DNA of 64,000 bases from Planctomycetota bacterium (GTDB lineage Bacteria > Planctomycetota > UBA1135 > UBA2386): the NCBI GenBank assembly GCA_046290465.1, contig JBKAGP010000001.1, positions 5,472,001 through 5,536,000 of the forward strand, given 5' to 3'. The position numbers and the translations under genes are program-made. The notes under the pieces are model-generated. The model ran no database searches and was not told the origin of the DNA. It saw only the letters and a program-made list of their open reading frames with translations. Of the stretch, positions 9,892 through 24,648 are shown piece by piece (position 1 is the stretch's first letter; each line of letters starts with the position of its first letter).

Positions 9892-10061
9892 CGCGCCATG
9901 TTCGCGGCTCGATGGCGGTGGCGCCAGCGCGACGCGCGCAGAGATACGCGCCGGAGTATCGAGGGCCCGGCGGCGGCGTCACCGCGTGGGGTAGAGTTGG
10001 ATTTCCTGCAGCGGCCGCGGCGTTCGGAAGAACGCTCCCGTCCCCCGAAGCCTGGCTGCCC

Positions 10062-12632
10062 ATGACCATCCCCGAGCAGAGCGTGGAGGAGGCCTTCCTG
10101 GCCTACCGCAAGGACCGCGACCCGGCGGCGCTGGCCGCGGTCTACGACGGCACGTCGTCGCGCATGCTCGCCGTCGCGCTGCACCTGGCCAGCAGCGCCA
10201 ACGCCGCCGAGGACGCGGTGCAGGACACGTTCCTGTTCGCGCTCGAACACCCAGAACGCTGGGACGAAACCCGGCCGCTGGTGCCGTGGCTGCTCGGCAT
10301 CCTGGTCAACCGCCTGCGCCAGTCGGCCTACCGCGCCAACCGCACGCCCGATCCCGGCCGCATCGCGCAGCCGGACGTTCCGGATCCCTCGTCGGAGCTG
10401 CAGGCGAGCGAGCTGCTGACCCGCATCGACGACGCGATCACGCACCTGCCGCAGCCGTATCGGACGGTCGTGCTGCTGCGACTCCGCAACGGCCTCGAAC
10501 CGGCCGACATCGCGGTCGCGCTCGATCGCAAGCCGAGCACCGTGCGCGCGCAGCTGACGCGCGGTGTCGAGATGCTGCGCAAGGTCCTGCCCGCCGGCGT
10601 CGCAGGCCTGATCCTCGGCACGCTGGCGCTGCCCCGGGGGCTGACCGCCGCGCGTGAGGTCGTGCTGAAGCGGGCCGCCGAAGTGCAGCGCGCGCTCGAG
10701 ATGCAGGCGCCGCTGGCCACACTCAAGCTCTGGTTGTTCGGCACCGGCGGCGTGCTGGCGATCGCGGCGCTGATCTGGGCGCTGGTGCTCGCGCGATCCG
10801 ATCCCGAGCTGCCGGAGCCGATCGACGAGCTGTTCGGGGTGGTCACCGAGACCCAGTCCGAGGTGCGCGAACTGCCCCTGCCGACGCCGTCCGCGCCGCC
10901 GTCGAGCGCGCGCGTCGAAGCGGCCGGCTCGACGGTGGTGCGGGTGTTGCGCCGCGATCGGGGCATGCCGTTCGCCGCGGTCGAGATCGAACCGCTCGGC
11001 GACCCACCGCAGGCGTTCGTGCACGCGACGTCGACTACGCGCGGCAGCTGGCGCGACGTCGTGCCGGCGCTGCCCAATCCGCCCGCGCTGGTCCGCCGCG
11101 CGACCACCGGCAACGACGGTGCCTGCGTGTTCAACCGGCTGCCGCCGGGGATCTGGGTCGGTCGCGCGCTCGGTGTCTGCACCGTGTTCGAGGTGCGTGC
11201 CGGCAGCGCCGGCGAGGTGCGCCTGACGGTCGAGCCGGGCAGCCGTCTGGTGCGCGGCATCGCGCTCGACGGCGATGGCTTGCCTCTGGTCGGAGCCCGC
11301 GTCTGGACGTGCCAGGAACACCGCAGCCGGGTGCGGCGGTTCGTCACCGCGTGCGACGAGGCCGGTCGCTTCCAGCTCGCGGTCGCGCCTTCGACCACCG
11401 TCGGCGTGGTCGCCGCCGGACTGGCACCGGTGGCCGTCGCCGTCGGCCGGCTCGCCGACATGCCGCCGCTCGACGTGCGCATGGTGCTCGAGCAGCCCGG
11501 CGCCAGCATCCGCGGTCGCGTCGTCGACGCCGCGGGGCGGCCGGTGGCCGGCGCGGTCGTGCAGGTCGGCCACTCGCGCGACGCGAAGGTCCGTTCGTGG
11601 CCGCAACAGCCCCAGGTTGTCGCGCGCGCGACGCGCATCGTGACCGACGACGACGGCCGCTTCACCTGTGTCGGGCTGGTGCCTGGCGCGGTTCGTCTGC
11701 GCGCGTTCACTCCCGACGCCGGCGTGTGCAGCGAGGTCGTGCAGCTGGCGGCCGGCGGCGAGGCCACCCCGGAGCTGCGGCTGCGCGGCACCGGTTCGGT
11801 GCAGGGCGTCGTCACCGGTGCCGACGGTCGGCCGCTGGCGGGGGCGATGGTGCGGGTCGGACGTCGCGGCGCCGTCGACCACCGCTCGTGCGTCAGTGGG
11901 GCGGACGGTTCGTTCCGGCTCTCGGGCGTGCCGGTCGGAGACGTGCGGATCGAGGCGTGCGACTACCGCGACGGCTTCGCGAGCACCGTGCTGGAGGTCG
12001 TCGCCGGGCAGGCCGCGCCGTGGTCGCCGACGTTCACCGCCGAGGATCTGGTCCTGCGCGGCCGGCTGCAGACGCCAGGCGGTCAGCCGTTCGCGGCGTG
12101 GATCGTGCACCGCGGGCGCATCGGCACGCGCGTGCTGCGAACGGATGGCGACGGCCGCTTCGCGGTGCCGGTCTCGGAGCGCGAGGCCGCGCTCGAGCAG
12201 TCGGTGTTCGTCTACCTCGAGGATCCGCGCAACGCGCGCGGCCACGTGCAGGGCACGCCGCACACCGGGGCTCGCGATTTGCGCGTCGGCAGCGAGGCGG
12301 TGCTGACGGTGCCGCCGCGCGCCGACTACCGCGGGCCGCGGCTGCGCAAGCTGGTCGGCGGCGAGCACCCGGTGCACATGGCGATCGTCTGGCCCGATGG
12401 CGCGGCCGGCGACGAGAGCGTCGACCTCGAGGTCTTCGACGCCGACGGGGCGCTGCTGCACCGTTCGATCTACCGCGGCGGCCGCTTCAACCAGGAAGGG
12501 CCCTACGTACTGCTGCCGTTCGGGACGTTCCGCATCGAGGCGCGCACCGCGTCGGGCCTGGCGGCGACCGTGGTCACCGGGTTCGGCCCGCAGGCGCCGC
12601 AGTTGCGCGCGGTGCTGCTGCCGCTGCGCTGA
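10062..12632 (+). CDS. ECF sigma factor fused to a TM helix and extracytoplasmic carboxypeptidase-regulatory-like repeats
   Basis: Sigma2 (AEDAVQDTF..., PWLLGI), sigma4 (LPQPYRTVVLLR...IAVALDRKPSTVRAQLTRG), TM LWLFGTGGVLAIAALIWALVLA, repeated G-x-V-x-D-x-x-G-x-P-x-x-G-A-x-V motifs. Confidence 0.85.
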   Translation: MTIPEQSVEEAFLAYRKDRDPAALAAVYDGTSSRMLAVALHLASSANAAEDAVQDTFLFALEHPERWDETRPLVPWLLGILVNRLRQSAYRANRTPDPGRIAQPDVPDPSSELQASELLTRIDDAITHLPQPYRTVVLLRLRNGLEPADIAVALDRKPSTVRAQLTRGVEMLRKVLPAGVAGLILGTLALPRGLTAAREVVLKRAAEVQRALEMQAPLATLKLWLFGTGGVLAIAALIWALVLARSDPELPEPIDELFGVVTETQSEVRELPLPTPSAPPSSARVEAAGSTVVRVLRRDRGMPFAAVEIEPLGDPPQAFVHATSTTRGSWRDVVPALPNPPALVRRATTGNDGACVFNRLPPGIWVGRALGVCTVFEVRAGSAGEVRLTVEPGSRLVRGIALDGDGLPLVGARVWTCQEHRSRVRRFVTACDEAGRFQLAVAPSTTVGVVAAGLAPVAVAVGRLADMPPLDVRMVLEQPGASIRGRVVDAAGRPVAGAVVQVGHSRDAKVRSWPQQPQVVARATRIVTDDDGRFTCVGLVPGAVRLRAFTPDAGVCSEVVQLAAGGEATPELRLRGTGSVQGVVTGADGRPLAGAMVRVGRRGAVDHRSCVSGADGSFRLSGVPVGDVRIEACDYRDGFASTVLEVVAGQAAPWSPTFTAEDLVLRGRLQTPGGQPFAAWIVHRGRIGTRVLRTDGDGRFAVPVSEREAALEQSVFVYLEDPRNARGHVQGTPHTGARDLRVGSEAVLTVPPRADYRGPRLRKLVGGEHPVHMAIVWPDGAAGDESVDLEVFDADGALLHRSIYRGGRFNQEGPYVLLPFGTFRIEARTASGLAATVVTGFGPQAPQLRAVLLPLR

Positions 12633-12664
12633 GCGCGCTCCCCGCAGGATGCGCGGTTCCTGCC

Positions 12665-13834
12665 TTACGGCAGGAACTTCTTCGGCTCCGCGAGCTTGCG
12701 CGGCAGGTACTCCTCGATCACGAAGTTGAGGCCCCACTTGGCCAGCGCCTGCTGCTCGGCGCGAACGCCCATCTTCAGCATCATCTTGATCGCCTTCTGC
12801 CACTCCTTGTGCGCCTGGAAGAACGGGTCGTTCTTGAGTGCGTCCTTGGCGCGCTTGACGTCGACGTCCTTGAGCGGGTGGGTCGCGTCCTGCAGCTCGA
12901 AGTCGAGGATGTCCTGCGGCGTCACGCCGAGGTAGCGCGCCTGCGGCACGCAGAAGAACTTGTTGAGGTGCACCGCGTTGCCGGAGCCGACCTTGAGCGT
13001 GCGGTAGATGTTGGAGATCCCGTACGGATCGCAGTCGTTGAAGCAGTAGACGGGCAGCTTGTTGTCGTCGGACAGCTTGCGGATGAAGCGCCGCGTCGAG
13101 CGCGTCGGCACGCCGGACGTGCCGATGATGATGCAGTTGACGTCGCGCCACCACTTGTGTTCGTGCAGCCGCGCGAACATGCCGCCGGTCTCGATGACCA
13201 GGATGAACTCGGCCTTGGTCTCGAACTTGAAGTGTTCGACGGAGCTCGGAATCGTGTAGCTGCCGCTGCCGAAGCGCGTGCAGTCGATGCGCTCCTCGGC
13301 GCCGGTCTCGCGGTCGCGGTCGATCACCACCAGCGAACCCGCGACGTTGCCGCCGTGATCCTCCGGACGGAACCGCAGCTGCTCGCGCGCGACGCCCTCG
13401 AGGCTGAACAGCGCCTCGATGTCGTCCATCACCGTGTCCGACTCGGGCTGCGACGTGAACTTCGCCTCGCCCCAGTTCTTGGACACGTAGTAGGCCTCTC
13501 GCTTGGTCGCGAAGTCGTCCTCCTGGACCATGTCCTTGCTGAGCGCCATCAGCTTGAGCGTCTGCGCGAACGTCTTGACGGTGTTGACCGTCAGCGTGCG
13601 TTCGATGCGGCCGCGGCCCATCTGGAAGCCGCCCTTCTTGTCGTAGCGCGCATTCTTCAGCGATCGCTCGGGGAACTTCAGCTCGGGCTTGTCGAGCTTC
13701 TGGATGCGGCCGTAGACGTGCTCGGCGCAGCGGTTGATCTCCCCGACCGTCACCTGGTCCAGCTTCGACATCGGCTTGCGCTGCTTGGGCTTCGCCGGCT
13801 TCTTGGTGATCTTCTTGGTCTTCTTGGCTGCCAT
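12665..13834 (-). CDS. top6A: DNA topoisomerase VI subunit A (Spo11 homolog)
   Basis: TKREAYY catalytic Tyr, Q-x-ESD, TOPRIM VIETGGMF and DCDPYG, AEQQAL. Confidence 0.95.
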   Translation of the reverse strand: MAAKKTKKITKKPAKPKQRKPMSKLDQVTVGEINRCAEHVYGRIQKLDKPELKFPERSLKNARYDKKGGFQMGRGRIERTLTVNTVKTFAQTLKLMALSKDMVQEDDFATKREAYYVSKNWGEAKFTSQPESDTVMDDIEALFSLEGVAREQLRFRPEDHGGNVAGSLVVIDRDRETGAEERIDCTRFGSGSYTIPSSVEHFKFETKAEFILVIETGGMFARLHEHKWWRDVNCIIIGTSGVPTRSTRRFIRKLSDDNKLPVYCFNDCDPYGISNIYRTLKVGSGNAVHLNKFFCVPQARYLGVTPQDILDFELQDATHPLKDVDVKRAKDALKNDPFFQAHKEWQKAIKMMLKMGVRAEQQALAKWGLNFVIEEYLPRKLAEPKKFLP

Positions 13835-13844
13835 GGATTCTCAT

Positions 13845-13878
13845 CGGGCTCTGACCAGCCCGCTTCGACCGGATCGTA
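13845..13878 (-). promoter_or_regulatory. top6A promoter: -10-like TACGAT plus 18-bp hairpin motif
   Basis: Minus strand TACGAT-N10-CGGGCTGGTCAGAGCCCG; the same motif and spacing occur upstream of top6B. Confidence 0.7.
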
Positions 13879-13908
13879 GCGAAGCGCGTCGACAGTTCGC
13901 AGGCAGAA

Positions 13909-15405
13909 ATGAACGGCTCCCCAGCGCCACAAGAGCCTCCTCGTGGAGTGTTGCCAACGTTGCGGCGGCTCGGACCCGGGCTGATCATCGCCGGCTCGAT
14001 CGTCGGCTCGGGCGAGCTGATCGCGACCACCAAGGTCGGCGCCGAAGCGGGCTTCACGCTGCTGTGGCTGATCGTCGTCGGTTGCGTCGTCAAGGTGTTC
14101 ACGCAGGTCGAGTTCGGCCGCGGTGCGATCGGGCGCGGGCGCACCGCGCTGCAGCTGCTCGACGACCTGCCGGGGCCGCGCTGGCGCGCCGGCTGGGCGG
14201 TGTGGCTGTGGGTCGCGATGACGCTGCTGACGCTGGCGCAGCAGGGCGGCATCGTCGGCGGGGTCGGCCAGGCGCTGACGATGGCGGTGCCGCTGACCGA
14301 ACGCGGCGCCGAGCTGCAGCAGCTGCAGGGCGAACTGGTCGCGCTGCAGGTGCAGATGGCGATGCAGCCGGACGTGCTCGATCTCGGCGCGATGCAGGTG
14401 CAGGCGGCCCTGCTGCAGGGACGCATCGAGGCGCTCGGCGGCTCGTCCGACGCGGTGCTGTGGGCGGCGATCCTGACCGCGCCGACCGCCGTCGTGCTGG
14501 TCGTCGGCCGCTTCACGCTGATCCAGCTGTTCGCGACCGGCATGGTGGTCGCCTTCACGATCGTCACCGTGCTGACCGTCGCGATGCTGCAGGCGCAGCC
14601 GGACTGGGCGATCCGTTCGGCGGAGCTGCTGCACGGGATGTCGTTCTCGCTGCCCGAGGCGGGCGGCGGTGCGGCGTCGTCGATGGGGACCGCGCTGGCG
14701 GCGTTCGGGATCATCGGGGTCGGCGCGGCCGAACTGGTGATGTATCCGTACTGGTGCCTCGAGAAGGGCTACGCGCGCTGGACCGGCGAGGCCGACGGCA
14801 GCGCCGACTGGCGCGGCCGCGCGCGCGGCTGGCTGCGGGTGATGCGTTGGGACGCGTGGCTGTCGGCGATCGTCTACACGTTCGCGACGGTGGCGTTCTA
14901 CCTTCTCGGCGCCGCGGTGCTCGGCCGCGTCGGACTCAACCCCGAGAAGGGCGCCATGGTGCGCACGCTGGCGCAGATGTACGTGCCGGTGTTCGGCGAG
15001 TGGGCGCGACCGATGTTCCTGGTCGGCGCGTTCTGCGTGCTCTACTCGACCTTCTTCGTGGCCAGCGCCGGCCTCGCGCGGATCGCGGCCGACTGCGTCA
15101 TGGTGCTCGGCCTCACACCGCGAACGGATGGTGCGCGGCGCCGCTGGACCCGCGTCTTCTGCGGCCTGTTGCCGGTGATCAGCTTCGCGGTGTTCGCGTG
15201 GGTCGAAGCGCCAGCCCAACTCGTGCTCGCCGGCGGCGTCGCGCAGGCGCTGATGCTGCCGGTGCTCGGCTTCGCGGCGCTGTGGGCCCGCTATCGCTGG
15301 ACCGACGTCGGGCTGCGACCGGGCCGCGCGTGGGACGTCGCGCTGTGGCTGTCGTGCGCCGCGTTCGTCGTGGTCGGTGCGTGGTCGCTGCTCTCCCGAT
15401 GGTAG
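13909..15405 (+). CDS. NRAMP-family (MntH-like) transporter
   Basis: LGPGLIIAGSIVGSGELI...GAEAGFTLLW, YPYWCLEKG, about 11 TM helices. Confidence 0.85.
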   Translation: MNGSPAPQEPPRGVLPTLRRLGPGLIIAGSIVGSGELIATTKVGAEAGFTLLWLIVVGCVVKVFTQVEFGRGAIGRGRTALQLLDDLPGPRWRAGWAVWLWVAMTLLTLAQQGGIVGGVGQALTMAVPLTERGAELQQLQGELVALQVQMAMQPDVLDLGAMQVQAALLQGRIEALGGSSDAVLWAAILTAPTAVVLVVGRFTLIQLFATGMVVAFTIVTVLTVAMLQAQPDWAIRSAELLHGMSFSLPEAGGGAASSMGTALAAFGIIGVGAAELVMYPYWCLEKGYARWTGEADGSADWRGRARGWLRVMRWDAWLSAIVYTFATVAFYLLGAAVLGRVGLNPEKGAMVRTLAQMYVPVFGEWARPMFLVGAFCVLYSTFFVASAGLARIAADCVMVLGLTPRTDGARRRWTRVFCGLLPVISFAVFAWVEAPAQLVLAGGVAQALMLPVLGFAALWARYRWTDVGLRPGRAWDVALWLSCAAFVVVGAWSLLSRW

Positions 15406-15539
15406 CGGCGGCGGCGTCGGCCATGGCGGCAACCGCTTAGGGGATGGTCCCACTGCGGGCATCCATCGCATGGGCGCTCGTGCTGGCAAACGCTTGAGGG
15501 CTACGCCATCGACTCCCGATAGACCGGGCCGGAGGGGGT

Positions 15540-16421
15540 ATGAGCAAGCACACGATCGTCGCGTTGTTCCTGACCGGCGCCGCCGCTGTCGCGCAGCAGG
15601 CGCCGAAGCTCGAATGGGTCGGCTGCGGCATCGCCAAGAAGGCGTTCATGACGTCGCTCGCGGAGGGCTACGAGAAGCACTGTGGAGTGCGGATCTCGCT
15701 CGCCGGCGGCGGCGCGACGCGCGGCATCCGCGACGTCGCCGCTGGCAAGGCGGACCTCGGCGGCACCTGCCGCCACAAGCTCGACCGACCGGACGAGGCC
15801 GACGCGGTGCTGCACCCGGTCGGTTGGGACGCGATCGTCGTCGTCGTGCATCCGGACAACCCGATCCAGAGCATCTCCTTCGGGGACCTGAAGAAGGTGC
15901 TGACCGGCGCCGTCACCAACTGGCAGCAGCTCGGTGGTGAGGACCACGCGATCGACGTGTTCGCTCGCAAGAGCAAGACGTCGGGGGTCGGCCTGATGGC
16001 GCGCGAACTGATCTTCTGGAACCCCGACTTCGAGTTCGCCGGGGCCACCAGGACGTTCCGCTCGAGCGGCCCGCTCGAACTGGCGCTCGAGAAGTCGCCG
16101 CACGCACTCGGCCTGACCGGCGTCAGCAGCGCGCACAAGCGCAAGCTGAAGATGCTGCAGGTCAACGGCAAGGCTCCGGACGCGAAGAACATCATGACCG
16201 GCGCCTACCCGGTCGTTCGCCCGCTCTACCTCGTGAGCAACAAGAAGGCCTCGGCCGCAGTGAAGCAGTTCGTCGCCTGGACCCTGAAGGACGGCCAGAA
16301 GCTGATCCAGAAGGAGGGCACGGTGACGGCCGCCGAAGGCCGCAAGCTGTGGGTCAAGTACAACAAGCTGATGAAGGGCATCCGGACGCGCCAGCGCGCC
16401 GCCGCGAAGCCCGGCAAGTAA
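15540..16421 (+). CDS. Periplasmic substrate-binding protein (PstS-like, PBP2 fold)
   Basis: GGAGG SD, signal peptide, [28 protein letters not shown]. Confidence 0.85.
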
Positions 16422-16440
16422 CGCCAACCGGACCAACCCC

Positions 16441-18243
16441 GTGCGCCTCAGAACCGCGATCCTGGTCGGCCTTGCGCCGGCGCTCCTGCCGCTCGTCGGC
16501 TCGACGCTTTGGACCTACTCGAGCACGTCCGAGAGCATGCTGTGCGATCGCGAACGGATCGTGCAGCTGGTCGCCGACAACGCCGCGATGCGGGTCGAGG
16601 CCCGCGTCGAGCGTGCTGCGCAGACGGTCGCGTCGTGGCAGCGCAACGCCGCGGACTCGCTCGGCCTCGGCCTCGAGTTCGAGAACGGCGACGAGGTGCG
16701 CTCGGTGCTGCAGGGCATGTTGTCTACAGCCGATGGCTTCGAACTGCTGCTGCTCGTCGATGCCGACGGCAAGCTGGTGCAGGCCGCGGATGGCGATGGG
16801 CGGGCCGGGCTGCTGGCGAGGTTGCGGGAGGCCGAGGTGCCGCTGCTGCTGGACCGCGTGCCGGCCGACGGCCGCTTCGCGCTGATGCGCCATCCCGCGC
16901 TCGACGCGATCGGGAGCGCGCAGCCCCGCACGCTGGTGGCGTCGTTCGCGACCAGCTCGAGCGTCGGCGAGGCGAACGGCAGCGTGCTGGCGTTCTTGCG
17001 CTGGAGTGAGGTCGCCGGCATCGTCGGAATGCCGGTGGCACAGCTGCATGAGACCGGCATGCCGGGCGGTGCCTGTCGCCTGTCGCGCGCCGGCGGCGAC
17101 GTGCTCAGCGGCGTCGGCGGCGAGCAGGTGTTCGACGATGCGGTGGCGGCCACCCGGCCGATCGAGGCGGGCCGGATCGACGCCAGGCTCGAGCTGCGGG
17201 TCGGCGCGCCGGCTGCCGTCGCGCTGGCGCCCGTGCGCACGCTGGCGGCCGTGAACTTCTCGCTCGGCCTGGCCGCCATCGGCCTGCTGGTCGGGCTCGG
17301 TGCGCTGGTCGCCGCGCGGCTGACCCGCAGCCTGTCGTCGGTGGGCACGCGGCTGGCGGCGATCGCCAGCGGCGGCAGCGACCTGCGCGCCCGCGTGCCC
17401 GAGGTCGGGGTGCACGAGGTGCGCGCGCTGGCCGGATCGTTCAACACGTTCGTCGGCGGGCTGCACGACCTGATCTGCGACGTGCAGGCACAGGCGATGA
17501 CGATCGAACGGGGCACCACCACGCTGGACTGCGAGATCCAGGAGATCGTCGAGCGAGCGTCGTCCCAGGCTGCGTCGACGCAGGCCATGCGCGGCACGCT
17601 GCACGAGATCGCCGACGGCACCGCCGCGTTTGCCGAGGCGGCGAAGCGGGTCGAGGTGTCGTCACAGAAGACCAGTGACGGTGTTGCGACCGGTCGCGCC
17701 AACATGCAGGACGCGACCGTCAAGATGCAGGCGATCACCGAGTCGGCGCACGAGATCGGCAAGGTCATCGACGTGGTGCAGAACATCGCGTTCCAGACCA
17801 ACCTGCTGGCGCTCAACGCCGCGGTCGAGGCCGCGCGTGCCGGCGAGGCCGGCAAGGGCTTCGCCGTCGTCGCCGAGGAGGTGCGCACGCTGGCGGCTCG
17901 CGCCGGTGCTGCGGCGCAGCAGACCGAAGGGCTTGTGCATGCGTCGATCGAGAACGTCGAGCAGGGCACCGAGTGCATGCAGGCGGCGACGGCGTCGTTC
18001 GAGGTCATCCTCGACCAGTCGAAGGCGCTCGGCGAAGAGATCGCCAGGACCGTGGACCAGGCCGAATCGCAGAACCGGTCGGTGTCGGTGCTGCAGGACG
18101 CGATCGTGCAGGTCGACGGCGACGCCAACCGGACCGCGGCCGGCACCCAGCAGCTGGCCGCGGGGGTCGCCGAGAACGCCGCCGCCGCCGCGATGCTGAA
18201 CGCGCTGACGTCGCAGTTCGTGGTCGAGCAGCCGGCGTCGTAG
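16441..18243 (+). CDS. Methyl-accepting chemotaxis protein
   Basis: Two TM segments, [38 protein letters not shown] signalling hairpin. Confidence 0.95.
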
Positions 18244-18296
18244 CCCCGTCCGCCGGCGCGGTAACGCCGCCGGCCGGACGTCGACCCGACCGTTCG

Positions 18297-20015
18297 TCAG
18301 TCGGCTCGGCGGCACGCGGCGCGCTCGTGCAGCCGCGACCAGTGCGACGGGGTGATCGGCATCGCCTCGCCGAACGCGGCCGCCGCGAGCAGCTCGCCGG
18401 CCCACGGTCCGGTGACCGCACCACGCGAGCCGTGGGCCAGCGTGACCGCGCGGTCGGGCGACGGCATGCCGATGCGCGCTAGCCGCTGCGCGGTGGTGGC
18501 GCGCACGCCGACGAAGCGGCGCACGGTCGGCAGGTCGCGCAGCGCTGCGGCGACCGCCGGCAAGGCGTCGAACTTCTGCAGCACGCGCGCGTCGTCGTCG
18601 GGCCGCTCGTCGCCCGCGTCGTCGCGGCGGTCGTAGGTCGAGCCGAGCCAGAGGCGTCCGTCCCGGTCGGGCGGGCACAGGTAGCCGGTCGTGCAGAGCA
18701 CCGCGCGCGGCGCGGCCGCGGGTGCCGGGATCGCGATCGCCTGGCCGCGCACCAGCTCGCCGTCGGCGATGCGCGCGGTCGCGTCGACCTCGAGGTCGAC
18801 GGCGGTCGTCGGCGGTTCGGCGACGACCTCGATCGCCTGGTGGGCGAGCAGTTCGTGCACGGCGCCGCTGAGGTCGACGACGCCGCCGGTCGGGATCCAG
18901 GCGGCGCCGAACGGCAGCGCGATGCCGGCCTGCTCACTGGCGCGTTCGCGCGGGCACCAGTGGGCGAGGTCGGCGGTGCGCGGGTTCTCGGCGCGGGCGC
19001 GCACGCGGGCTTCGTCGTCGGCGTCGACCGCGCAGAGCAGCACGCCGCAGCCGCGGAACGAAGCCGGCGCGTTCTGCGGCAGCCATCGCGAAGTCCAGCG
19101 GAAGGCCTCGGCGACGATCTCGGCGTCGGGCACCGAATGGCGGCTCGGCCGCCACAGCCGCGGCCGCACGGCGGCGGCGGGGATGCCGGAGGCACCGTCG
19201 GCGATGCCGTCGGGCCCGTGCACGGTGACCCGGCAGCCGCGCGCGGCGAACGCGCGCGCCGCCGACGCACCCGCGATGCCGGCGCCGCGGACCAGCACGT
19301 GCTGCGGTGCGCGCGTGCGAGCGACGGCGGCGTCCTCGCCGAGCCAGCGGGCGTGCAGCATTTCGCGCTTGTCGCCGAAGCCGCGTCGGCGCTCGAGCTC
19401 GAAGCCGGCCGCGAGCAGCGCACGCCGGACGTCGCCGGCGACGGTGTAGGTGGCGGCGGTCGCGCCCGGTCGGCAGCGGTCGGCGACGGCGCGGAGCAGT
19501 TCGGGCGTCCACAGCTCCGGGTTGACGCGTGGTGCGAAACCGTCGAGGTACCAGGCATCCGCCGCGAACGTGTGGCCGTGCAGCACCGTGCGGGCATCGC
19601 CGAGCAGCAGGTTGAGCGTGACCCGTCCGTCTGCGAACACGGCGCGGGTGTCGCCGCCCTGCAGGGTCTGCCGCACCCGCTGCGCTGCGTCGTGCCATGC
19701 CTCTGGCAGCCGCGCGTGCACGGGGCCGAGCACGTCCGCGCCGAGCGGTGTGCGTTCGCAGCTGATGTAGACGAGTCGCGCGTCGGGGTGGGCGTGCTCG
19801 GCGAACGCGCGCAGCGTCACCAGGAAGTTCATGCCGGTGCCGAAGCCCAGTTCGGCGACGACGAACGTGCCGCGCGCCGCCGCGAACCGTTCGCGCAGGT
19901 CGTTGCCGTCGACGAACACGTGCGCCGCCTGCTGCACGCCGTCGCCGCTGAAGTAGACGTCGCCGAACTGCGTCGAGCGCAGCCGGCCGTCGGCATCGAA
20001 ATGCGCGGGCGTCAC
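18297..20015 (-). CDS. mnmC: Bifunctional tRNA mnm5s2U34 biosynthesis protein MnmC (methyltransferase plus FAD oxidoreductase)
   Basis: FGDVYFS, ELGFGTGMNF, WYLDGFAP..NPELW, GFGDKREML; second domain GAGIAG and HGSRG. Confidence 0.88.
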   Translation of the reverse strand: MTPAHFDADGRLRSTQFGDVYFSGDGVQQAAHVFVDGNDLRERFAAARGTFVVAELGFGTGMNFLVTLRAFAEHAHPDARLVYISCERTPLGADVLGPVHARLPEAWHDAAQRVRQTLQGGDTRAVFADGRVTLNLLLGDARTVLHGHTFAADAWYLDGFAPRVNPELWTPELLRAVADRCRPGATAATYTVAGDVRRALLAAGFELERRRGFGDKREMLHARWLGEDAAVARTRAPQHVLVRGAGIAGASAARAFAARGCRVTVHGPDGIADGASGIPAAAVRPRLWRPSRHSVPDAEIVAEAFRWTSRWLPQNAPASFRGCGVLLCAVDADDEARVRARAENPRTADLAHWCPRERASEQAGIALPFGAAWIPTGGVVDLSGAVHELLAHQAIEVVAEPPTTAVDLEVDATARIADGELVRGQAIAIPAPAAAPRAVLCTTGYLCPPDRDGRLWLGSTYDRRDDAGDERPDDDARVLQKFDALPAVAAALRDLPTVRRFVGVRATTAQRLARIGMPSPDRAVTLAHGSRGAVTGPWAGELLAAAAFGEAMPITPSHWSRLHERAACRRAD

Positions 20016-20018
20016 CGC

Positions 20019-20378
20019 TCAGGTCGAGGCCGACGTGTTCGACGTGTTCTGGCTCTCCTCGTGCTGGGCCAGCATCGAGGTCGCCATCGAGCTGCTGCGG
20101 AACGACGTCAGGCACGGGATGCCGATGCCGAAGCCCTTCATGTCGTTCTGCCACAGCTGGCGGCCGGTGGCGGCGTCGATGCAGTAGGTGTAACCCTGCA
20201 CCGAGGCGATCACGCGGTCGCCGTCGAGCATCAGCGCGACCGGGCCGTAACCGCGCGGGGAGCGCCACTTCCAGACCAGCTCGCCGGTCTCCCGGTCGAG
20301 CGCTGCGGCGCGGGAGTTGAAGGCGACGAAGACGAGGTCCGCGATGGCCGGCGAACCGGACGGGGTGGACGTGCTCAT
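20019..20378 (-). CDS. Small PQQ-like beta-propeller repeat protein
   Basis: ALDRETGELVW and CIDAATGRQLW repeats. Confidence 0.8.
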   Translation of the reverse strand: MSTSTPSGSPAIADLVFVAFNSRAAALDRETGELVWKWRSPRGYGPVALMLDGDRVIASVQGYTYCIDAATGRQLWQNDMKGFGIGIPCLTSFRSSSMATSMLAQHEESQNTSNTSAST

Positions 20379-20466
20379 GCCGCCACGTTGGGCTGCCCGC
20401 GCCCGTTTGGCAAGCGGGCTCCGCCGCGTGCGCGGTCGGTCGGTCCGGTCGCTCGTCGGATCGCCG

Positions 20467-22206
20467 CTACATCTTGCGGCTGCGCTCGAGCACGTCGGTC
20501 AGGTTGCCGGTCGCCGCCTCGACGTCCTTGTCGTCGAGTTCGAGGATGTCCTTCAGCGCGTCGACCACGTGCGGGATGTACATCGTGATGTAGTTGCGCT
20601 TCTTGAACTCGTTGGCGAGCTTCTTGCCCTTGCGCACGTGCGTGCCGAGCTTGCGGCCGCACTCCATCAGCGCGCGCTTCAGCTCCTCCATGATCTCGTC
20701 GTAGCCGGCGATGGCCTCCTTCGACTCGCTCGTGAACGGCACCCACACCGACGCGATGTGCACGAAGATCACCATCGGGCCGATCGGCAGCGCGCCGCGC
20801 GGCTGCTGCAGGCCGTAGTTCTTCCAGTTGGTGCCGACCACCGCCTTGGTGATCGCACAGGCCGACTGCTGGAACACCAGCGGCACGCGGTTGGCGAAGC
20901 GGATCAGCCGCACCGGGTCGTCCGCGTTGCCCATCAGCAGCTCTTCGTTCTTCTTGACCGACTTCTCGACGATCTTGCCGGTCTCGGTCATCTCGAGCGT
21001 GTCGCCGGGACGGCCGTAGGCGATGCCGACCTCGACCGCGAACGGGCGGCCGCGGTAGACGACCGGCTTGCGCGACGCGGCCTGGTAGAAGTCGGCTTCG
21101 ACCTCCTTCTTGAGGCCGGCGATGATCAGGTCCTCGCCGATCGGCGCGATGCAGGTCAGCGGCGGCGACTTGATCTTGGTCGCCTCGATCGCGTCCTTCA
21201 GCTTCTGCACGGTCTTGGTGTCGAGGCGCCGCGGGTTGCTGCCCGGGTTGACGCCGGCCTTCTCGCAGATCTCCTTGGCGACCGTCGGTCCGACTCGCGA
21301 GAAGTCCTGCTGCAAGAACGCGCTGACCGTGCGGTTCTCGCTCTCCTGGATCATCTTCAGCAGGATGCCGAGCTCGACGCCGTGCGGGTGCGGCTTGATC
21401 TCCTCGACCTCCTTTGGGAGCTCGTTGGTGTTGCGCACGTACTCGGTGACGGTGCCGTCCGGCTCGGTGAACGTCAGGTTCACGTGCGGGTTGGACACCG
21501 CCATCAGCTTGAGGAACTCCTGGATGCTGCGCTGGCCGCGGCGGTACTCGCCCTCCATCGGGATCGACACCTCGGTGCCGTGCTTCTTGTCCCACTCGAT
21601 CGGCTCGTCCTTGGCCTCCGGGCGGTTCTTGGCGGTGTCGATGCGGATCGTGTACTGCATCGGCACCGCGCGGCGGCCGGCCTTGCTGCGCACCTTGACC
21701 GGCTGGCCGGTGGTCAGCTGGCCATACATGCCCGCTGCCGAGATGCCGATGCCCTGCTGGCCGCGGCTCTGCCGCAGGCGGTGGAACTTCGAACCGTAGA
21801 GCAGCCGGCCGAACACGTGCGGCACCTGCGCCTTGACGATGCCGGGACCGTTGTCCTCGACGACCATCGTGAACTGCTTCTCGTTGTCGCCGATGCGTTC
21901 GATCGTGACCTTGATGTCCGGCAGGATGCGGGCTTCCTCGCAGGCGTCCAGGCTGTTGTCGACCGCTTCCTTGACCGCGGTCAGCAGCGCCTTGCGCGGA
22001 CTGTCGAAGCCGAGCAGGTGGCGGTTCTTGGTGAAGAACTCGCTGACCGAGATCTCGCGCTGGCGCTTGGCCATCGTCTCGGCGTTGATGGTCTTGCTCT
22101 TGCTGGCCTTCTTCGCCGCCGTCGGCGCCTTGTTCTTGCTGGCTGCCATCGTGTCGTCGTCGGTCGCGCCGGCGAACAGGTCTTGCTGCCCGGACGTGTT
22201 GCTCAT
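20467..22206 (-). CDS. top6B: DNA topoisomerase VI subunit B
   Basis: GHKL motifs EAVDNSLDA, VEDNGPGI, LLYGSKFH, RGQQGIGIS; PHPHG; RFANRVPL; VPFTSESKEAI; start 22206 or 22149. Confidence 0.95.
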   Translation of the reverse strand: MSNTSGQQDLFAGATDDDTMAASKNKAPTAAKKASKSKTINAETMAKRQREISVSEFFTKNRHLLGFDSPRKALLTAVKEAVDNSLDACEEARILPDIKVTIERIGDNEKQFTMVVEDNGPGIVKAQVPHVFGRLLYGSKFHRLRQSRGQQGIGISAAGMYGQLTTGQPVKVRSKAGRRAVPMQYTIRIDTAKNRPEAKDEPIEWDKKHGTEVSIPMEGEYRRGQRSIQEFLKLMAVSNPHVNLTFTEPDGTVTEYVRNTNELPKEVEEIKPHPHGVELGILLKMIQESENRTVSAFLQQDFSRVGPTVAKEICEKAGVNPGSNPRRLDTKTVQKLKDAIEATKIKSPPLTCIAPIGEDLIIAGLKKEVEADFYQAASRKPVVYRGRPFAVEVGIAYGRPGDTLEMTETGKIVEKSVKKNEELLMGNADDPVRLIRFANRVPLVFQQSACAITKAVVGTNWKNYGLQQPRGALPIGPMVIFVHIASVWVPFTSESKEAIAGYDEIMEELKRALMECGRKLGTHVRKGKKLANEFKKRNYITMYIPHVVDALKDILELDDKDVEAATGNLTDVLERSRKM

Positions 22207-22283
22207 GGGGGTGGTGGTCTCGGTTGCGTGGCTCCACCGTGTCGTGCTCCTGCGGAACCGCCGCTTGCGTGCGCACGTGCACG

Positions 22284-22321
22284 GGTCCGGGCTCTGACCA
22301 GCCCGGACCGGGCCGATCCTA
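22284..22321 (-). promoter_or_regulatory. top6B promoter: -10-like TAGGAT plus 18-bp hairpin motif
   Basis: Minus strand TAGGAT-N10-CGGGCTGGTCAGAGCCCG; here the stem extends to 10 bp (22284-22293 with 22300-22309). Confidence 0.7.
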
Positions 22322-22435
22322 GCGACGCGCCCGCGCTCGGGAAATGCGTTTTGCGGCGGTCGGGTGTCAGGGTTGCCGACGGGCCGCCGCGTCACCGGAA
22401 GCAAGGGCGCTGTCCACGGGCTTTCCAGCTCCGGT

Positions 22436-23380
22436 CTACGAGGCCGGCGGCCGCGTCGCGCGGCAGTAGAACAACTCGGTGTTGACGACGGCGTTCGGCG
22501 AGTGGTCGTAGAAGGCGTAATCGACATCGAAGCCAAGCGAACGCAGCGAGTCGTCGAGTTCCCTGCCGTAGACGCGGTACGACAGCGCCGCGTTCTCCGG
22601 ATCGTTGGCGTCACCGTGGTACTCGCGCTCCATGACGTAGTCGTCCTGCTCCGGGTCGTCGGGATCGCGAACCACGACGCGATGCATCGTCTCGTGGGCC
22701 TCGCGGGTGTGCGGCACGTTGAAGACGTATGCGCCGCCGTCGCCCAGCACCCGTCGGATCTCACGGTGTGCGAGGTCGTCGAGCCGAACGTGCTCCATCA
22801 CGTCGCTGGTGAGGATCAGGTCGAAGTGCCCGTCCGGGAACGTGAGGCGCTCGAGGTTCTGGTTGGTGACGTTCTGCTTGCCGTCGATTGGCGAGCCGAG
22901 TGGGTCGTCGCAGCGAAAGCGCGAGAGCTGCACGTCGACGCCGTCGATCGCGGCCAGCTCCAGAGGGATCGGATAGGCGCAGGTCAGGTAGGCAAACGGC
23001 AGCTGGGTGTCGTAGATGCGGATGGGCCGAGGTAGGCGGTGGTTGCGCAGTTCGCGCAGCGAGGAGGCCTCGACTCCGAGTTCTTCCGCGAAGAACCGCA
23101 GGACACCGCGCGCGACCGAGCGGTAGCGGCTGGTCGTGAGGCATCCGGCGCACAAGTAGGACTCGCGCGCCAGGGGCGTCTCCTTGCAGTAGAAGGCGGT
23201 CGTCTCGCCGCACACGTTGCAGGTCGCGAGCAGGCAGGGGGCGTTGCCGAAGCGCGCCGAGTGCTCCTGCAGGCGTCTGACACACTGCAGCCAGTCGCCT
23301 GCCTCGATGCCGCGCCCAGCCGCAGCCGGCGGTTTGGAGGGCAGCAGGAACTGCTTCATCTGGCTGAGGAGGCCTTTCAT
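22436..23380 (-). CDS. SAM-dependent methyltransferase-like protein with N-terminal Zn-ribbon
   Basis: CNVCG...CAGC, then QNLERLTFPDGHFDLILTSDVMEHV...EIRRVL. Confidence 0.8.
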   Translation of the reverse strand: MKGLLSQMKQFLLPSKPPAAAGRGIEAGDWLQCVRRLQEHSARFGNAPCLLATCNVCGETTAFYCKETPLARESYLCAGCLTTSRYRSVARGVLRFFAEELGVEASSLRELRNHRLPRPIRIYDTQLPFAYLTCAYPIPLELAAIDGVDVQLSRFRCDDPLGSPIDGKQNVTNQNLERLTFPDGHFDLILTSDVMEHVRLDDLAHREIRRVLGDGGAYVFNVPHTREAHETMHRVVVRDPDDPEQDDYVMEREYHGDANDPENAALSYRVYGRELDDSLRSLGFDVDYAFYDHSPNAVVNTELFYCRATRPPAS

Positions 23381-23487
23381 GACGTCTGCATTGCACGATC
23401 CTGGGCTCGGTGCGCCGGGTCAATCGCTTTCCGGGCGACGTGCCTGGCAGCCGACGCGAGCACGCGAGATCGGCTACGATCCGCGGC

Positions 23488-24648
23488 ATGGTGTGGAGAA
23501 CGTCTCGGGCGGCCGTGGCCGCCCTGTCCTGTTGCCTCGCGGCGGTGCCCGCCCAGGGCGGAGAGGGGCAACCGGAGAAGGGGTACCAGGGCCACGATTC
23601 GCAGGGCCAGAATCCGCAGGGCCAGGATCCGCAGGGCCAGGATCCGCAGGACGAAGATCTGCCCGCGGCCGTGCGCGCCGAGCGCTGCTACCAGCTGCTG
23701 CTGGCCGAGGCGTCGCGCCCCGAGGCGATGCACGTGCTGTGGCAGCTGCAGCGGGACGCCTTGCCGGTGTTGTCCCGTGCCGTCCGCAGCAAGGATCTGG
23801 CGGTGGTCCAGGCGGCATGTGCAGTGCTGCACGAGATCGGCGGGGTCGCGGCGCCGGTGCGCGAGATCCTGATCCGCGAGCGGCGTGGGTCGAAGGGGGA
23901 CCGGCGGCTCGCCTACGAGTGGGCGCTGCACGCGATCGAGGCCCGCGGCTTCACGTTCGCGACCTGGAACGGCGAACTGCTGTTCGTCGACGACGACGGC
24001 GAGATCGCGCGCACGCTCGAAGGCTTCGCCAGCGCGTGGGACGTGCAGACCCTGCCGGGCGCGCGCATGCTGCTGACGCAGGTGTCCAAGCAGGGCGCGC
24101 GCGAACTCGACGGCGAGGGCAAGGAGCGGCGTGCATTCGGCGGGGATGCCAACACGCCGCTGCGTGGCCGACGGCTGTGGAACGGCAACACGCTGATCAG
24201 CGACAGCCAGAAGGGGCTGACCGAGTTCGACCCGACCGGCAAGGTCGTGTGGCGCCACGAGACCGGCGCTAACTGCATGCAGCGCCTGTTCAACGGCCAC
24301 ACGCTGTTCGCGACCGGCGGCGGCAAGCTGGTCGAGATCGACCGCGACGGCAAGACCGTGCGTTCGGTCGACGTGCCGGATCAGATCTACGGCATGCGCC
24401 GCCTGCCCGACGGCAACACGCTGCTGGCGACGCGCGCGGGCGACGGGGTCGTGCTGGTCGGCCCCGAGGGCAAGGTGATCAAGCAGTGGCAGAAGCTCGA
24501 GAACCCGAGCGACGCGATGCTGCTCGAGGACGGTTCGATCCTGATCTGCGGCAGCGCCAAGGCGGCGCTGTTCGATCCCGACGGCAAGGAGCGCTGGAGC
24601 TTCGAACGCCAGTGGGTCGCCGGCGTCTGCCGCGGCGGCGTCTACTGA
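23488..24648 (+). CDS. Secreted beta-propeller (PQQ-like/arylsulfotransferase-like) repeat protein
   Basis: Signal peptide and repeated RL-x-NGNTL / E-x-D-x-x-GKVVW motifs. Confidence 0.75.
   Translation: MVWRTSRAAVAALSCCLAAVPAQGGEGQPEKGYQGHDSQGQNPQGQDPQGQDPQDEDLPAAVRAERCYQLLLAEASRPEAMHVLWQLQRDALPVLSRAVRSKDLAVVQAACAVLHEIGGVAAPVREILIRERRGSKGDRRLAYEWALHAIEARGFTFATWNGELLFVDDDGEIARTLEGFASAWDVQTLPGARMLLTQVSKQGARELDGEGKERRAFGGDANTPLRGRRLWNGNTLISDSQKGLTEFDPTGKVVWRHETGANCMQRLFNGHTLFATGGGKLVEIDRDGKTVRSVDVPDQIYGMRRLPDGNTLLATRAGDGVVLVGPEGKVIKQWQKLENPSDAMLLEDGSILICGSAKAALFDPDGKERWSFERQWVAGVCRGGVY
23587..23649 (+). repeat. 15-bp coding tandem repeat (QGQDP x about 4)
   Basis: CAGGGCCACGATTCG CAGGGCCAGAATCCG CAGGGCCAGGATCCG CAGGGCCAGGATCCG CAG. 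Confidence 0.85.

Follow-up and report, generated by a model that had tools for sequence, protein, structure and literature searches.

In a window of 64,000 nucleotides (nt) from a Planctomycetota bacterium (contig JBKAGP010000001.1, positions 5,472,001 to 5,536,000), the genes for the two subunits of DNA topoisomerase VI (Topo VI), top6A and top6B, are separated, and each is preceded by the same short hairpin at the same distance from a promoter box. The element is real, is more widespread than it appeared at first reading, and is not in the catalogues checked. Its stem covaries and tolerates G·U pairs on the sense strand, and its loop is invariant, a combination that, so far as comparison of sequences can tell, points to an RNA leader element and not to a DNA operator. 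Conservation among relatives shows a small regulon marked by this hairpin, formed by top6B, top6A, tex, nrdR-smc, pilD and the operon of a gene with an OmpA domain, and the element very probably acts as the hairpin of a 5'-leader RNA regulon. The regulon is well supported; its reader, probably one regulator common to these operons and most likely a small RNA with matching loops, is a hypothesis.

The features of the window on which the analysis is based are the following.

12665..13834, minus strand: top6A, DNA topoisomerase VI subunit A, 389 amino acids (PF21180, PF20768 and PF04406 above cut-off)
13845..13862, minus strand: top6A leader hairpin, 6-bp stem with a GGUCAG loop (13851-13856), about +4 to +21 of the inferred transcript
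13873..13878, minus strand: -10-like box TACGAT of the top6A promoter, 16 nt before the loop (the start site is inferred from this box)
20467..22206, minus strand: top6B, DNA topoisomerase VI subunit B, 579 amino acids (TIGR01052, 504 bits against a cut-off of 381)
22284..22309, minus strand: top6B leader hairpin, predicted by folding, 10-bp stem with a GGUCAG loop (22294-22299), including the 18-mer at 22288-22305
22316..22321, minus strand: -10-like box TAGGAT of the top6B promoter, 16 nt before the loop

The sequence CGGGCTCTGACCAGCCCG is found at 13845-13862 and 22288-22305, and on the coding (minus) strand both copies read TCGC-TA(C/G)GAT-N10-CGGGCT-GGTCAG-AGCCCG, the 18-mer starting 10 nt past the box, which is TACGAT on the top6A side and TAGGAT on the top6B side. 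The positions and layout given in the original prediction are therefore correct, as is its remark that the window holds no other copy: there is no third match at up to three mismatches (shuffled sequences give a mean of 0.31 at three). A search of the whole genome (6,594,045 nt) found exact copies only before top6A and top6B, two in all, with none further at one mismatch and one at two. Both sites are spanned by independent DNA contigs from two public runs, which, being DNA only, have no bearing on expression. A pattern scan across GTDB gave 17 matches, 15 of them hairpin-forming, of which 10 are in records titled as Planctomycetota metagenome-assembled genomes; these records overlap the set of relatives used below and are not independent of it. 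The description of the element as an inverted repeat with a fixed 6-nt loop holds, with the correction that the top6B stem extends to 10 bp (its 40-nt 5' segment folds with z = -4.15). The identity of the 18 nt is not the signal, since the A and B copies are identical in only 2 of the 15 genomes that have both.

What is conserved becomes clear when the 57 top6-linked copies are compared. Fifty-six have a GGTCAG loop and one has GGTCAC, an invariance that is partly circular because GGTCA was required for selection, and a T-A-x-x-x-T box is present in all 57, again partly by selection. The loop lies 12-17 nt past the TANNNT box, 15-16 nt in 47 of the 57. Among the 285 cells formed by the inner five stem pairs, 244 are Watson-Crick, 34 G·U, 2 A·C and 5 other; in the tex copies, G·U is found 8 times and A·C twice in 222 cells, the kin in this set not being independent. 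This wobble bias on the sense strand is the one expected of a structured RNA leader. Covariation over all core pairs reached 0.574 with top6 alone (33 training rows; slid controls at most 0.205) and 0.871 when tex was included (50 rows; slid controls at most 0.251). On a Top6B tree of 39 taxa the six loop positions account for a single change in total and the stem positions for 4-10 each, with at least 20 joint two-sided stem changes; this tree and the larger one mentioned below are quick trees, not the result of a careful search. The right arm was also left free in a metagenome pattern that fixed only the box, the left arm and the loop. It returned 30 matches, 8 of them before top6A or top6B, and in these the right arm pairs at 6 of 6 positions in seven cases and 5 of 6 in the other, while among the remaining 22 none pairs at six and one at five.

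Both local copies are perfect, identical inverted repeats lying over the start region, which is how a double-stranded palindromic operator for a dimeric transcription factor would look, and the original prediction had offered an operator as one option. The alignment of 50 sequences contains no invariant arm position and an invariant spacer (the loop), the reverse of what an operator presents; arms that vary with compensation around a fixed loop argue against a DNA operator, and this explanation, already largely refuted, is hardly tenable. The other option, an RNA-type hairpin at a fixed place close to the promoter, is sustained by the covariation test that had been proposed for it: the stem compensates, and the element is a selected one. 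Its position is tied to the promoter and not to the start codon, from which it is separated by 22 to more than 300 nt. In Rfam 15, at the gathering score, window positions 12000-24000 gave only two chance microRNA matches far below threshold and 14 element loci gave none. A resemblance of the loop context to the tRNA D-arm or to signal recognition particle (SRP) RNA was set aside, since the two arms of the stem covary. A scan with consensus promoters found none, which is attributable to the weak -35 boxes in this DNA.

The original prediction saw the hairpin as dedicated to Topo VI, and a near-exact search followed by a first covariance model also gave a top6-only element; this was wrong, as the model missed the sites at tex, nrdR, pilD and the OmpA-domain gene. 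A relaxed rule (loop GGTCAG, paired stem, TANNNT 11-35 nt upstream) found 8 sites in the genome, compared with 1.0 on average, and never more than 6, for permuted loops (n=60). Two of the 8 are antisense within coding regions, and the six intergenic ones (top6A, top6B, tex, nrdR-smc, pilD, OmpA-domain gene) all show conservation and covariation of the stem. Those outside the window are listed here.

C1:2280990, plus strand: tex element (Tex domains found in the gene)
C1:1256118, minus strand: nrdR-smc element (SMC N-terminus recognised)
C1:1991759, minus strand: pilD element (A24 peptidase)
C1:567686, plus strand: element of a gene with coiled-coil and OmpA domains

The element stands before 18 of 26 tex genes, and 19 of the 20 previously unassigned matches of a second model precede tex. 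It was found at nrdR-smc in all four relatives with an nrdR match (five were searched), and at pilD in 5/5 relatives as well as in genomes G005 and G006, with a GGTCCG variant in G008. At the OmpA-domain gene it is intact in three of five relatives and also in G004; this operon extends to a primase-like gene, and from N-terminal motifs we take its later genes to be rsmA, dnaG and rpoD. The distance between box and loop is 28-33 nt at nrdR and pilD, and extra unpaired copies of GGTCA are present in the pilD and OmpA-domain leaders. The element is absent upstream of gyrA, in this genome and five relatives, and of gyrB and both type IA topoisomerase genes, in this genome only. A site before an actin-like gene was discarded because it falls inside the reading frame of that gene. 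Weak GGTCAG hairpins before two polysaccharide-export operons (G000:C1:413650 and 4732282, both plus strand) are possible members or chance, and one model match with the loop and a near-complete stem (L443, G086:C96) lies ahead of a gene that is neither tex nor top6. The gyrA leaders (L062, L344-L348) have a feature of their own, a TACAGGA-x-CGGCAGCAATGTTGAAGCG-like stretch about 60-110 nt before gyrA in 6/6 genomes, which is probably part of a divergent-promoter region.

Several of these properties would also be those of a hairpin formed by the non-template DNA strand, or of a signal of the ops or pause type addressed to the transcription machinery and possibly sensitive to supercoiling. The position is tied to the promoter, the excess of G·U (G·T) over A·C is compatible with RNA and with a sense-strand DNA hairpin alike, and pairing beyond the core does not drop sharply at the inferred start (130/188 with the 5' partner at or after it, 121/268 before). 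However, stems of 6-14 bp with a 6-nt loop are larger than a transcription bubble and short and GC-rich for cruciform extrusion; the genome has one NusG-family gene (PF02357) and no dedicated paralog of the kind that ops/JUMPstart elements would call for; spacing reaches 28-33 nt at nrdR and pilD; and the element is absent from gyrA, gyrB and the type IA genes. These observations make a DNA-level signal improbable.

At the top6 loci, the commonest gene order in the family is mqnA-top6B-top6A, with the element at the head of this operon or directly before top6B, and none was seen between adjacent top6B and top6A. In the larger Top6B tree all intact cases fall within one clade of 49 rows (SH-aLRT, an approximate likelihood-ratio support, of 100), in which the element heads the top6B unit in 39 (one of them, G070, inferred across contigs); the 21 rows outside the clade have no element under the strict rule. 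Imperfect or closer-set GGTCAG copies were recorded in G017, G026, G032, G062, G091 and at G022 top6A. At least three lineages of the clade have split the operon (13 home-genus genomes; G073/G075; G085), and the hairpin is kept before every separately transcribed top6A of the clade, 16 of 16 split genomes, and at both subunit genes in 15 of the 16, the mqnA-top6B unit of G073 being without it. The expectation that separated top6A and top6B both keep the element, and that orthologues in relatives carry it too, is thus borne out within this clade.

Six home-genus genomes retain the first codons of mqnA in both the top6A and the top6B leaders, which identifies their promoters as duplicates; in these six genomes, what is left of mqnA shows the two element copies to descend from a duplicated promoter of an ancestral mqnA-top6B-top6A operon. 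Promoter copies left with intact mqnA only have a decayed element in 14/14 examined, and mqnA was rejected as its true owner for this reason. In 54 genomes outside the training set, 20 of the 21 model matches with E<1e-3 head a top6 unit and the remaining one is a decayed mqnA copy; nine weaker matches comprise one true element, one top6B promoter without the loop and seven unrelated sequences. With the first, insensitive model, a sample of 150 genomes across the phylum yielded no element outside the family, and six matches from outside the order were, on inspection, promoter-box or chance similarities.

Other top6 leaders have features of their own. Seven top6B leaders (L214, L216, L218, L220, L222, L224, L226; genomes G076-G080, G061, G093) carry another hairpin after the -10 box, CCGC-(G/A)GGCG-GCGG, whose stem ends covary, in a clade without the GGTCAG element; the top6A leaders of the same clade share C(A)GGGAGG 60-90 nt ahead of the start. 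Element-less top6 units (L037, L232-L235, L248; G006, G088, G089, G090, G108) have a common promoter, CTGGAC, about 18 nt, TA-x-x-x-A/G, which in the split genome G088 is found at both top6A and top6B. Two further loci (L169, L170) belong to a record titled Luminiphilus sp. with planctomycete-type top6 genes and both elements, a label that looks wrong.

Duplication of the promoters raises the question of whether the hairpin is a passive relic, or a plain 5'-terminal stem-loop that stabilises the messenger and has no specific reader. Unniraman et al. are said to have described, in the title of a paper of 2002, the 5' hairpin of Mycobacterium smegmatis gyr as a stabiliser; the loop discussed here differs in being strictly selected and common to several operons. 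That 5' stem-loops stabilise mRNA is documented elsewhere (PMC7509114, in the text available). Nonetheless, the loop has stayed fixed while stems and spacers turn over, the element has decayed on all 14 copies that serve mqnA only, and it is present at four non-homologous leaders with unrelated stems, so that a hairpin with no specific reader is quite improbable.

The tex gene carries the element in G006, G017, G021 and G028, where the top6 units are without it, and in G004, where top6 was not found, from which it follows that top6 was probably recruited into an older regulon. The same distribution, together with the four further transcription units that are tagged, bears on the proposal that Topo VI or a free subunit binds the hairpin and balances A and B. 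Retention at both subunit genes after independent splits is what such autoregulation would produce, and the H2TH fold of Top6B is shared with ribosomal protein S13 (PMC5922973, in part). An element that is not specific to top6 makes this arrangement unlikely, and with gyrA, gyrB and both type IA genes untagged, the autoregulation and supercoiling sensing envisaged in the original prediction have lost their basis; we regard Topo VI autoregulation as very improbable.

A candidate reader of the loop was found in an intergenic region of the same genome.

G000:C1:1646511-1646769, minus strand: candidate small RNA (sRNA) of about 260 nt, with CUGACC loops and a terminator

A TAGCCT box lies 243 nt ahead of an intrinsic terminator with a CTGACC loop, which no other terminator of the genome has (permuted loops gave 0 of 40 hexamers), and the gene that follows has its own TANNNT boxes. 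GGDEF-like and response-regulator genes are the neighbours of the locus. The predicted RNA contains four CUGACC, three of them in hairpin loops, terminator loop included (unpaired probability 0.97-1.0), folds with z = -3.2 and has in addition a 26-nt C-rich loop. Three-loop clusters were obtained in 7 cases among 120 hexamers of the same composition, and the candidate alone ends in a T-tract. One predicted RNA thus displays the loop complementary to GGUCAG that a kissing-loop regulon would need. It is neither transfer-messenger RNA (located with aragorn) nor RNase P RNA nor SRP RNA (sought by motif), all of which map elsewhere, and a single viral match to its terminator is a chance one inside a primase-like gene.

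In the mechanism proposed, the stem would only display the single-stranded GGUCAG loop at the 5' end of the RNA, and the candidate sRNA would dock on nascent leaders by loop-loop pairing of 6 bp, with a joint effect on every target, be it on decay, on elongation or on translation. In many leaders the tag lies a long way from the start codon, so that an effect on decay or early elongation is no less plausible than one on translation. Both top6 copies would have been retained because both subunits must stay in the regulon, a selection that is inferred. Of the readers considered the candidate is the most likely, although we put the chance that it reads the loop by kissing pairs somewhat short of even. 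The broader proposal, that a multi-loop sRNA coordinates a planctomycete chromosome-segregation module of Topo VI, condensin SMC, NrdR and Tex through kissing-loop tags, is speculative and, taken whole, unlikely.

The same RNA hairpin and the same regulon could instead be read by an RNA-binding protein (Tex, its divergent paralog or another), the 260-nt locus then being irrelevant or acting from its opposite strand. A constant loop carried by a stem that is free to vary is what protein sites usually show, the extra unpaired GGTCA copies in the pilD and OmpA-domain leaders fit such a reader, and tex, which codes for an RNA-binding protein with S1, HhH and YqgF domains, is the most widely retained owner of the element, as autoregulation predicts. 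On the other hand, an element-bearing tex was not found in G003, G005, G007, G008 and G012 (74-92% complete), which keep intact elements, four of these five genomes having a divergent, element-less Tex paralog; and YhgF of E. coli binds broadly along transcripts, without sharp sites in the portion of the source available (PMC10201417), where the molecular function of Tex/YhgF is described as unknown. If transcribed from the opposite strand, the candidate locus would be a GGUCAG-displaying protein sponge, but no TANNNT box or terminator for that strand is seen in the sequence examined. A protein reader is a close rival of the sRNA, if on balance doubtful. Tex of Pseudomonas binds promoter DNA (PMC13340108, in part), so a role at the DNA level is also in print. 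The second Tex paralog of this genome (G000:C1:60858-63494, minus strand; also L338, L343, L447-L450) has an altered YqgF motif, is conserved in the family and is without the element.

Several observations weigh against an RNA regulon read by the candidate sRNA, besides the strand ambiguity of the G·U bias and the partial circularity of the loop count already mentioned. The two strands of the candidate fold almost equally (-107.6 vs -107.1 kcal/mol), the minus strand being favoured only by the terminator, the box and the loop-closing G·U pairs; the candidate is known from one genome; and its C-rich loop pairs well with one of six ribosome-binding regions. Within the 49-row Top6B clade, 7 rows lack the element, one has a weak one and two are contig-cut or leaderless, and in G013 (L066, G013:C47) an intact promoter with its element precedes a bare remnant of the mqnA start, with no downstream gene. 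At the OmpA-domain gene the element is degenerate in one of five relatives and absent in another, and neither this gene nor pilD has an obvious chromosome theme.

Known systems offer partial likenesses. Staphylococcus aureus RNAIII acts on rot and coa by loop-loop pairing, and RNAI/RNAII form a kissing-loop antisense system. The candidate resembles them in being a multi-hairpin RNA with repeated identical loops complementary to loops of the target leaders, and also in its C-rich loop; it differs in its targets, which are chromosome-maintenance genes and display an invariant hexamer loop close to the 5' end, in many cases well away from the ribosome site. The pairing is predicted, and no sequence relationship is claimed. 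As far as the sources available describe them, CsrA/RsmA sites and CsrB-type sponges similarly define a regulon by a short motif in 5'-leader hairpin loops, sometimes in tandem. Here the motif is GGUCAG, without the GGA of those sites, and is tied to the promoter, not to the ribosome site (the loop is GGUCAG in 56/57, 22 to >300 nt from the start codon), so these are not CsrA/RsmA sites; the RNA with repeated loops, moreover, appears to carry the complement. Other small candidate cis hairpins stand before a topoisomerase or RNA polymerase gene, namely the gyrA RNA motif (RF01740) and Lacto-rpoB (RF01709), the latter a single hairpin with a conserved loop (Weinberg et al., 2010; PMC2864571); in the text available, these are from other taxa, with other loops and a single main target each, and the present element has no Rfam match.

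In the literature searched, to which most subscription papers do not belong, there is no description of this element or of the regulation of bacterial Topo VI, which agrees with the remark in the original prediction that it knew of no such regulatory element. What Topo VI does in bacteria is described as an open question, and the enzyme has been proposed as a stand-in for Topo IV in such organisms (PMC11302465, in part); the single GyrB/ParE-family gene and single GyrA/ParC-family gene of this genome fit a replacement of Topo IV by Topo VI. The human Tex-like protein SRBD1 is needed for the localisation of topoisomerase II alpha and interacts genetically with condensin II, according to the portion of the source available (PMC11830093). 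In a similar way, one leader element is common to tex, top6A, top6B and smc in genomes that yielded a single GyrA/ParC-family gene, with the difference that the bacterial link is a co-regulation deduced from sequence and concerns a type IIB enzyme; the shared tag echoes the SRBD1 link and is no proof of it.

Topo VI and Tex both gain a testable physiological context from a selected tag that top6A, top6B, smc and tex have in common, and the sRNA locus supplies a specific candidate regulator for a phylum in which few RNA regulators have been described. The tag also illustrates how coordination can outlast repeated splitting of the operon of an A2B2 enzyme. If the sRNA-based coordination were true, no regulation of bacterial Topo VI would have been described before it, and it would point to a bacterial counterpart of the link between Tex/SRBD1, condensin and type II topoisomerase in human mitosis.

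The assignment of the two window genes to a type IIB topoisomerase is based on the WHD and Toprim domains of Top6A and the GHKL and transducer domains of Top6B, and the start of Top6B, MSNTSGQQ, is conserved among relatives. Both subunits (12665-13834 and 20467-22206) have lysine-rich N-terminal extensions that precede the family-model matches. Convergent with top6A, at 9912-12632 on the plus strand, lies a gene for an extracytoplasmic function (ECF)-type sigma factor fused to carboxypeptidase-regulatory-like repeats.

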